Below the pieces are notes generated by a model. It saw nothing but the letters and a program-made list of their open reading frames with translations. It had not been told where the DNA came from and searched no databases. A stretch of 64,000 bases of DNA from an uncultured Verrucomicrobiae bacterium. GTDB taxonomy: Bacteria; Chlamydiota; Chlamydiia; Chlamydiales; Rhabdochlamydiaceae. The position numbers and the translations under genes were made by a program. The stretch covers positions 96,001 to 160,000 of the forward strand of contig CAWEXY010000011.1 in the NCBI GenBank assembly GCA_963813135.1, in the 5' to 3' direction. Positions within the stretch are counted from its first letter, which is position 1. Every line of letters starts with the position of its first letter. Of this stretch, positions 27,244 to 27,594 are shown one piece after another.

Positions 27244-27594
27244 TTATTTAAGTGGCTGAGCATCTTCTTGTTCACAGTGCATTATTTTATGTACAATATC
27301 GCTTATTGCTTCAGTAGTGTACGGTCCACTAGACCAATAATTGCGGCAGAACCAAGCTTCCCCAAAATAGCTGATGAGGATAGGTTGGTGCTTGATCAAT
27401 CCGCTGGGCTCAACGAACGATACGTAATAATTATGGGACTTCTCTCCTTTTCTTAAGAGATACGTATATGCCTTGGACCCACGCAGCAGATCTTCTACCT
27501 CTAAACCGGTAACATTATCGTACCAGCAGGAGCTTTCCACGATTGAATCCTCGATAACAAATTGTTCATTCGATACAACTTCGGCTAATGCCAT
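27244..27594 (-). CDS. Stand-alone SH2-like domain protein
   Basis: WY..VT..EVEDLL, TYLLR, YYVSFV, IKHQPI, ISDIVH in SH2 order and spacing; AAGGAGG RBS. Confidence 0.8.
   Translation of the reverse strand: MALAEVVSNEQFVIEDSIVESSCWYDNVTGLEVEDLLRGSKAYTYLLRKGEKSHNYYVSFVEPSGLIKHQPILISYFGEAWFCRNYWSSGPYTTEAISDIVHKIMHCEQEDAQPLK

Follow-up and report, generated by a model that had tools for sequence, protein, structure and literature searches.

SH2 domains in bacteria and related systems

The accessible text of a 2018 survey places confident bacterial SH2 domains in the Legionellales only, where they are host-directed effectors (PMC6208348). The phosphotyrosine (pTyr) pockets are sorted there into two types, betaB5+betaD6 and betaB5+alphaA2. 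Loss of the betaD6 Arg abolishes binding by LeSH, and LeSH and RavO have a pTyr pocket whose roof is the EF region. Two SH2 proteins of uncultivated bacteria, K2BDF1 and K2EE31, did not bind to pTyr peptides according to the same text (PMC6208348). GarA is a stand-alone FHA protein which, as far as the available parts of two papers go, acts on metabolic enzymes by direct binding and so regulates glutamate metabolism; one of its targets, the large glutamate dehydrogenase, is inhibited by it (PMC12321487, PMC8175468).

The protein described here, P0001, is encoded in a 64,000-nucleotide stretch of DNA, the whole of which is called the window (Table 1). It shares with the Legionella proteins LeSH, RavO, DoSH and LUSH a bacterial SH2 fold and an intracellular type of bacterium, and LeSH, too, is a single-domain protein. 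The Legionella proteins, however, carry Arg at both betaB5 and betaD6 and are translocated (accessible text of PMC6208348), whereas P0001 has Pro at betaD6 and its gene is tied to a pair of sensor-like and exporter genes. RavO scores no better against P0001 than the eukaryotic SH2 domains do (Z 8.7 versus 10.0). The likeness to the classical eukaryotic domains (PLC-gamma1, p120RasGAP, p85, SOCS, Spt6) lies in the predicted topology alphaA-betaB-betaC-betaD-betaE-betaF-alphaB, in structural Z-scores of 8-10 over 85-107 residues and in the betaB5 Arg and betaD4 His. P0001 differs from them in that it is only 8-28% identical in the structural alignments, has no basic residue at alphaA2 or betaD6, carries Gly at betaB7 and Tyr at betaC3, and is a whole protein in a bacterial operon context rather than a module.

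GarA/OdhI resembles the system proposed below in that a phospho-reader fold, small and stand-alone, controls metabolism by binding directly. Its target, the 180-kDa NAD-glutamate dehydrogenase, carries the ACT-like array that the protein encoded next to P0001 resembles (available parts of PMC8175468 and PMC12321487). The comparison is an analogy only: GarA/OdhI is FHA and not SH2, the neighbouring protein is without a dehydrogenase domain, and no ETTS-like tail was seen. No placement of GarA on the ACT* domain was found in the literature.

Multi-domain SH2 proteins of the same phylum are SH2-like as well and lie over the Pfam cut-off. They are encoded in frames of 345-3135 aa, unlike P0001, and the one locus examined is without the fusion and MATE genes described below; they seem to form a group of their own, of effector type. 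One of them, encoded in genome G142 and 687 aa long, combines two SH2 stretches with a PP2C phosphatase domain. Further multi-domain SH2 proteins were seen in G054, G074, G099, G149 and G168.

A literature search on SH2 domains and chlamydiae, which most subscription papers lay outside, returned no paper on the stand-alone family; the papers listed deal with Legionella (PMC7542358, PMC9195298), survey J-domains or never mention SH2. K2BDF1 and K2EE31 are absent from two supplementary files of PMC6208348 and from the ten family clusters that were looked up. If either belongs to the chlamydial family, a pTyr-independent reading of that family would be favoured.

The SH2-fold protein P0001

The SH2 gene is unbroken in this assembly, and all the residues quoted in an earlier, sequence-only reading are present in its frame. 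That reading took the whole protein to be a stand-alone SH2 domain and proposed a Pfam profile search and a structure prediction as checks. The profile search was favourable in part: SH2 (PF00017) is the sole Pfam match of P0001 (E 0.011), but its 16.3 bits are under the gathering cut-off of 21 bits. A paralog on contig C21 of the same genome passes the cut-off with 24.6 bits. Of 44 aligned relatives, 29 match Pfam SH2 at E<=0.1, the only Pfam family for which this holds. A profile of the 44 relatives run against PDB sequences retrieved the SH2 domains of p85, SOCS4, PLC-gamma and SHP2 with a best E of 3.7e-5, and the best 60 of 120 rows were all SH2-containing eukaryotic proteins.

The AlphaFold2 model (pLDDT 83.4, pTM 0.74) has the SH2 topology of an antiparallel sheet flanked by two helices, with helices at residues 30-37 and 97-104 and strands at 44-49, 55-61, 67-77, 80-85 and 87-92. 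The top chains found with Foldseek are SH2-containing (E 3e-5, prob 1.00), and so are all 50 listed rows of a VIA-align comparison with 48,161 chains. The best VIA-align match has Z 10.0 (rmsd 3.7 over 102 residues), the Spt6 SH2 domain ties for the best with Z 9.9, and the SH2 domain of Legionella RavO takes rank 29 with Z 8.7 and an rmsd of 3.5 over 94 residues. A viral fold search gave weak SH2-type matches only, none nearer than the cellular ones. Among the named ESM Atlas clusters an amoebozoan one comes nearest (0.89), which serves as a lead only. Judged by the predicted model, the SH2 fold assignment is sound, and the domain makes up the whole protein, as had been proposed. About 12 residues precede the fold, and two of the first 20 residues are Ser, Thr or Pro. 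The net charge of the protein is -8, and the GC content of its gene is 0.42 versus 0.49 in the genome.

Table 1. Features of the SH2 locus and of related loci (positions without a prefix are those of the window)
Feature	Position	Strand	Remarks
P0001, stand-alone SH2-fold protein, 116 aa	27244..27594	-	ATG-start ORF; Pfam and predicted fold
Shine-Dalgarno-like AAGGAGGT	27598..27605	-	just 5' of the SH2 start codon; present in a same-genus ortholog too
MATE-family exporter	25855..27221	-	two ORF pieces, 26697-27221 and 25855-26709; one 458-aa ORF in L048
Fusion: tandem ACT-like array and OppA-type (SBP_bac_5) domain, no signal peptide	27620..30990	-	one 1123-aa ORF in L048
Fusion ORF pieces in this assembly	30439-30990, 27909-30536, 27620-27922	-	
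OmpR-type response regulator	31138-31824	+	
Adjacent eukaryote-like kinases	55702-58383, 58650-60500	-	
Further genes split across frames	24600-25116, 32317-33325, 33471-34421; G000:C13:39449-40159		LysM protein, TPR protein, membrane protein, sctT
Fusion-SH2-MATE-MATE cassette (L049)	G000:C21:66188-72223		same genome
Fusion and Arg-less SH2-like gene, Ser/Pro-rich N-terminus	G000:C11:203530-207020		same genome; SH2-like gene 203530-203988
Short aspartate kinase, unfused ACT-like array, rpe	G000:C30:19045-21500		same order in L088, L090, L096
Tandem SH2 and PP2C protein	L120:2242-4302		genome G142
Tandem degenerate SH2-like protein	L112:2837-3463		genome G008
Divergent 227- and 289-aa genes	L109:5791-6471, L110:5765-6631		genomes G353, G020

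The phosphotyrosine pocket

The register of the pocket was set by alignment to the C-terminal SH2 domain of p85, which carries Ser at betaB7 and Ala at betaC3, and residues were counted over 164 of the 165 aligned members. By this alignment the pocket of P0001 consists of Arg48 (betaB5), His69 (betaD4), Gly30 (alphaA2), Gly50 (betaB7), Tyr57 (betaC3) and Pro71 (betaD6). The betaB5 Arg and betaD4 His are kept and the alphaA2 Arg is replaced, just as the sequence-only reading had it. The second basic phosphate ligand is missing from both alphaA2 and betaD6, and the combination of Ser/Thr at betaB7 with a small residue at betaC3 is missing as well.

The rest of the family is similar. The betaB5 Arg is found in 140 of 164 members and the betaD4 His in 154, and a second basic residue occurs in only 15, with Arg or Lys at alphaA2 in three and at betaD6 in 12. 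BetaB7 is mostly Gly and is Ser or Thr in 10 of 164; betaC3 is aromatic in 113 of 164. None of the 140 Arg-bearing members combines a second basic residue with Ser/Thr at betaB7. On a FastTree phylogeny of 157 members the state of the betaB5 Arg changes at least 7 times, and Arg was lost about 7 times. As read from the aligned sequences, the pocket of the stand-alone chlamydial family is degenerate, and the family fits neither of the pTyr pocket types given in the accessible text of PMC6208348. P0001 is, on its predicted model, an SH2 protein by fold, probably without the canonical pTyr chemistry. The earlier reading had implied pTyr recognition as in the Legionella effectors; this is doubtful, given the Pro at betaD6, the Gly at betaB7, the Tyr at betaC3 and the repeated loss of the betaB5 Arg.

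Asn85 is present in 157 of 164 members, and position 84 is Arg or Lys in 97 of 164. Arg/Lys84 could rebuild a non-canonical phosphate site. Since the pocket can have its roof in the EF region (accessible text of PMC6208348), Arg84 could stand in for the missing basic residue. Of the Arg-bearing members, 140 in all, 39 carry Glu, Asp or Gln at position 84 and 92 have an acidic BC1.

Distribution of the family

The survey of chlamydial genomes that had been proposed was carried out with a 20-row profile, which scored 400 of 401 genomes of the phylum and matched 93 of them. From 129 family matches 102 were kept, hand-counted in 75 genomes; the 27 that were dropped are weak (E>=4.6e-9, partial or within longer frames). 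Full-length members are thus found in 75 of 400 genomes, with a patchy distribution over several taxonomic families. Relatives are named Chlamydiae, Simkaniaceae or Rhabdochlamydiaceae, and the Atlas clusters are commonest in Chlamydiota. The family motifs, in the numbering of P0001, are W81-x-x-R84-N85 and M105-H106-C107; the frames are open, and the motifs are conserved at a mean identity of about 36%. Tandem copies occur in G004, G147 and G364.

The best 150 cluster representatives include 94 single-stretch proteins of 88-192 aa, and every good match found is therefore stand-alone. The other 56 have 927-6669 aa with 6-24 weak SH2-like stretches each. They were left out because P0043, the one that was read, is a repeat-rich, adhesin-like sequence, and were rejected as summed-repeat artefacts. 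A search for fused forms, itself weak, gave one match at E 0.06 among 7999 scored candidates.

Pfam PF00017 run over 150 genomes flags 8 genomes with 13 matches, only three of which are stand-alone members, and NCBIfam has no match for the SH2-fold proteins. One member carries the NCBI automatic name 'SH2 domain-containing protein'. The family has been overlooked because the Pfam model mostly misses its members. It represents a second, much wider family of bacterial SH2 domains and supplies small, intact proteins suited to direct binding tests.

Gene neighbourhood

The SH2 gene lies on the same strand as its two neighbours, an OppA-domain gene at a distance of 25 bp and a MATE gene. In the ortholog L048 the order is the fusion gene, a 120-aa SH2 gene and the MATE gene. 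The transporter-like operon proposed earlier holds as far as these flanking genes and their strand are concerned, but the upstream gene is no ordinary OppA gene, and the same surroundings are conserved throughout the phylum; the earlier reading had missed both points.

Among 37 loci with 1.5-kb flanks, the fusion is present in 35, MATE in 30, both in 28 and at least one of them in all 37. As many as 88 of the 102 full-length members lie within 4.5 kb of a fusion among the matches listed (the fusion set is 127 of the 150 matches listed, the other 23 being stand-alone forms; there are 552 further matches). The linked SH2 gene is directly downstream on the same strand in 76 of these 88 cases, head-to-head in 9 and otherwise placed in 3. 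Three of the remaining 14 members were fetched, and each has the fusion upstream; the other 11 members, several at contig ends, lie outside the linkage check. In all, 91 of 102 members adjoin an ACT-like/OppA fusion gene (1000-1200 aa), usually together with a MATE gene. The trio persists in three different gene orders, with overlapping start and stop codons in L050 and L056. In the genome studied here, an SH2-like gene comes after every one of the three fusions.

The reverse linkage is looser: 83 of the 127 listed fusions have a family match nearby and 44 are without one. The fusion is followed directly by MATE, with no SH2 gene between, in G270, G140, G099, G222 and G162, and by OppA in G093 and G177. 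Since such fusion-MATE pairs exist, the SH2-fold protein would be optional or accessory. Degenerate or tandem SH2-like genes stand at the fusion in G102 and G008. The tandem degenerate protein of G008 (L112) stands behind a fusion, another divergent or degenerate version was seen in L095, and two longer divergent genes occupy the SH2 position in G353 and G020.

The pairwise distances of the SH2 proteins co-vary with those of the OppA part in 28 loci (rho 0.64; permutation p 0.001) and with those of MATE in 25 loci (rho 0.68), which is expected from shared descent alone. A scan for promoters and terminators at the locus gave nothing usable above shuffles, and a Chlam_OMP6 search gave no match. 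Both in this locus and in L048, the gene of an OmpR-type response regulator runs divergently to the cassette; none was seen beside the cassette in the other large loci examined.

The fusion and MATE genes are broken into several frames in this assembly, in or beside homopolymer runs. The breaks near 30441 (fusion) and 26736 (MATE) are each contradicted by a single short-read contig, from one run with a depth of 2.4, which differs by one base; no contig covers the break near 27970. A frame check on 24 other or same genes found four with more than one frame; two of these are the fusion and MATE, and at least one is a paralog artefact. The breaks are probably assembly errors. A pseudogene reading of the flanking genes is less likely, given the homopolymers, the contradiction of two of the three breaks and the fact that sctT is split too. 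Several more genes of the genome are split across frames, in keeping with assembly indel errors.

The upstream fusion

None of ten fusions has a hydrophobic leader (maximum hydropathy <=0.5 within the first 40 aa). The front half gave no Pfam match below E 0.014, no NCBIfam match and none in a PDB sequence search. Its model contains three ACT-like units, and the top structural matches, 7jsr and 9hv0, are the large (180-kDa) glutamate dehydrogenase. Foldseek gave E 9.8e-6 at a low TM-score of 0.2, and VIA-align gave Z 9.9 against the N-terminus of that enzyme (rmsd 3.8 over 141). The Atlas leads for this half are GDH_2nd and GDH_ACT1-3 (0.76-0.87). The predicted models show an ACT-like fold for the front half; the catalytic domain of the dehydrogenase is missing, and the C-terminal half is SBP_bac_5/OppA. 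The fusion holds 11 well-conserved Tyr.

Of 401 genomes of the phylum, 361 carry the ACT-like array domain; all 30 genomes of family f20, which may be Chlamydiaceae to judge from their size of 1.0-1.2 Mb, are without it. The array may occur outside Chlamydiota, since an ESM Atlas cluster of 631 aa that is most frequent in Ca. Fermentibacterota reaches 0.91 against it.

Possible function

The relatives of P0001 almost always adjoin sensor-like and exporter genes, which argues for a role inside the bacterium rather than that of an injected reader. Our tentative preference, held at only just under an even chance, is that the SH2-fold protein is an optional, phosphotyrosine-independent cytoplasmic adaptor of a metabolite-sensing export module. 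Every step of the mechanism beyond the gene linkage is one that we infer. The fusion would be a cytoplasmic sensor in which the ACT-like and OppA parts have amino acids or peptides as ligands. The SH2-fold protein would bind to the sensor, to the cytoplasmic face of MATE or to both, its reshaped pocket (Arg48, His69, Arg84-Asn85) taking up an acidic or otherwise unphosphorylated surface, and this binding would tune the export of a metabolite by MATE. GarA serves as the model for such an adaptor. It is possible, at somewhat less than an even chance, that the three genes form a module internal to the bacterium in which the SH2 fold couples the ACT/OppA sensor to MATE, with or without a phospho-ligand.

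An effector like Legionella LeSH, secreted and acting in the host cell with or without pTyr, would leave the neighbourhood incidental or make it a co-regulated island. Such a role is unlikely for P0001, even if the bacterium is of an intracellular type with a type III secretion gene (sctT, in split frames), tandem copies exist in three genomes and the Atlas lead is amoebozoan. Stand-alone Legionella SH2 effectors exist, some of them pTyr-blind yet translocated according to the accessible text of PMC6208348. The N-termini of the Arg-less members are richer in Ser/Thr/Pro, a crude check on secretion, with a fraction in the first 20 residues of 0.31 (n=23) versus 0.19 in Arg-bearing members (n=134) and 0.18 in the background (901 ORFs). 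The short, Ser/Thr/Pro-poor stretch before the fold of P0001 speaks against such an effector, however, as do the missing canonical pocket residues, the overlapping start and stop codons, and the near-invariant place beside the fusion through rearrangements.

A phospho-reader in the bacterial cell, with Arg48 and the EF-region Arg84 binding pTyr, pSer, pThr or a phospho-metabolite at the fusion and thereby switching the exporter, is likewise improbable. The SH2 domain of Spt6, one of the two best structural matches, reads pSer and pThr. Conservation of the betaB5 Arg, the betaD4 His, Arg/Lys84 and Asn85, the EF roof of LeSH and RavO, the well-conserved Tyr residues of the fusion and the roughly 11 protein kinases of the genome (12 kinase matches over the cut-off), with Hanks/TKL types among them, all fit such a reader. 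They are offset by the frequent Glu, Asp or Gln at position 84, the mostly acidic BC1, the repeated loss of Arg48 and the lack of any BY-kinase family match over the cut-off in this 82%-complete genome. The SH2 gene may instead be a passenger, once derived from a host and carried in a duplicated and transferred cassette, with a role unrelated to its neighbours or in decay. The patchy occurrence, the fusion-MATE pairs without it, the divergent and tandem degenerate versions and the low GC content would be explained in this way, but open frames with conserved motifs and the constant company of fusion and MATE after rearrangements make a passenger distinctly unlikely.

The operon context points to the use of the SH2 fold inside the bacterium. 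If that is true, the fold has been re-used without its canonical phosphotyrosine chemistry, and P0001 provides an entry to an unstudied family of sensors found in nearly the whole phylum. Were the three genes an internal module of the kind described, P0001 would belong to the first SH2 domains that serve the bacterium's own physiology and are not aimed at a host.

Other features of the window and genome

The window also carries genes for an ATP/ADP translocase and for a DnaB over the cut-off of PRK06321, a model which we take to be chlamydial. Together with the names of the relatives and the Atlas clusters, these genes suggest that the organism belongs to the Chlamydiota. The window's two adjacent eukaryote-like kinases have an HxDLKS catalytic loop and are effector-like; the first matches PK_Tyr_Ser-Thr with 207 bits. 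Several paralogs lie elsewhere in the genome.

An unfused ACT-like array of 550-670 aa follows a short aspartate kinase here and in three of five other loci, in these four cases with rpe after it; no SH2 gene was seen beside it in the loci examined. The kinase, of about 260-290 aa, matches the first 245 or so residues of models of about 410 aa and is without the C-terminal third. The two genes possibly represent a split enzyme-plus-regulator that is near-core in environmental chlamydiae.
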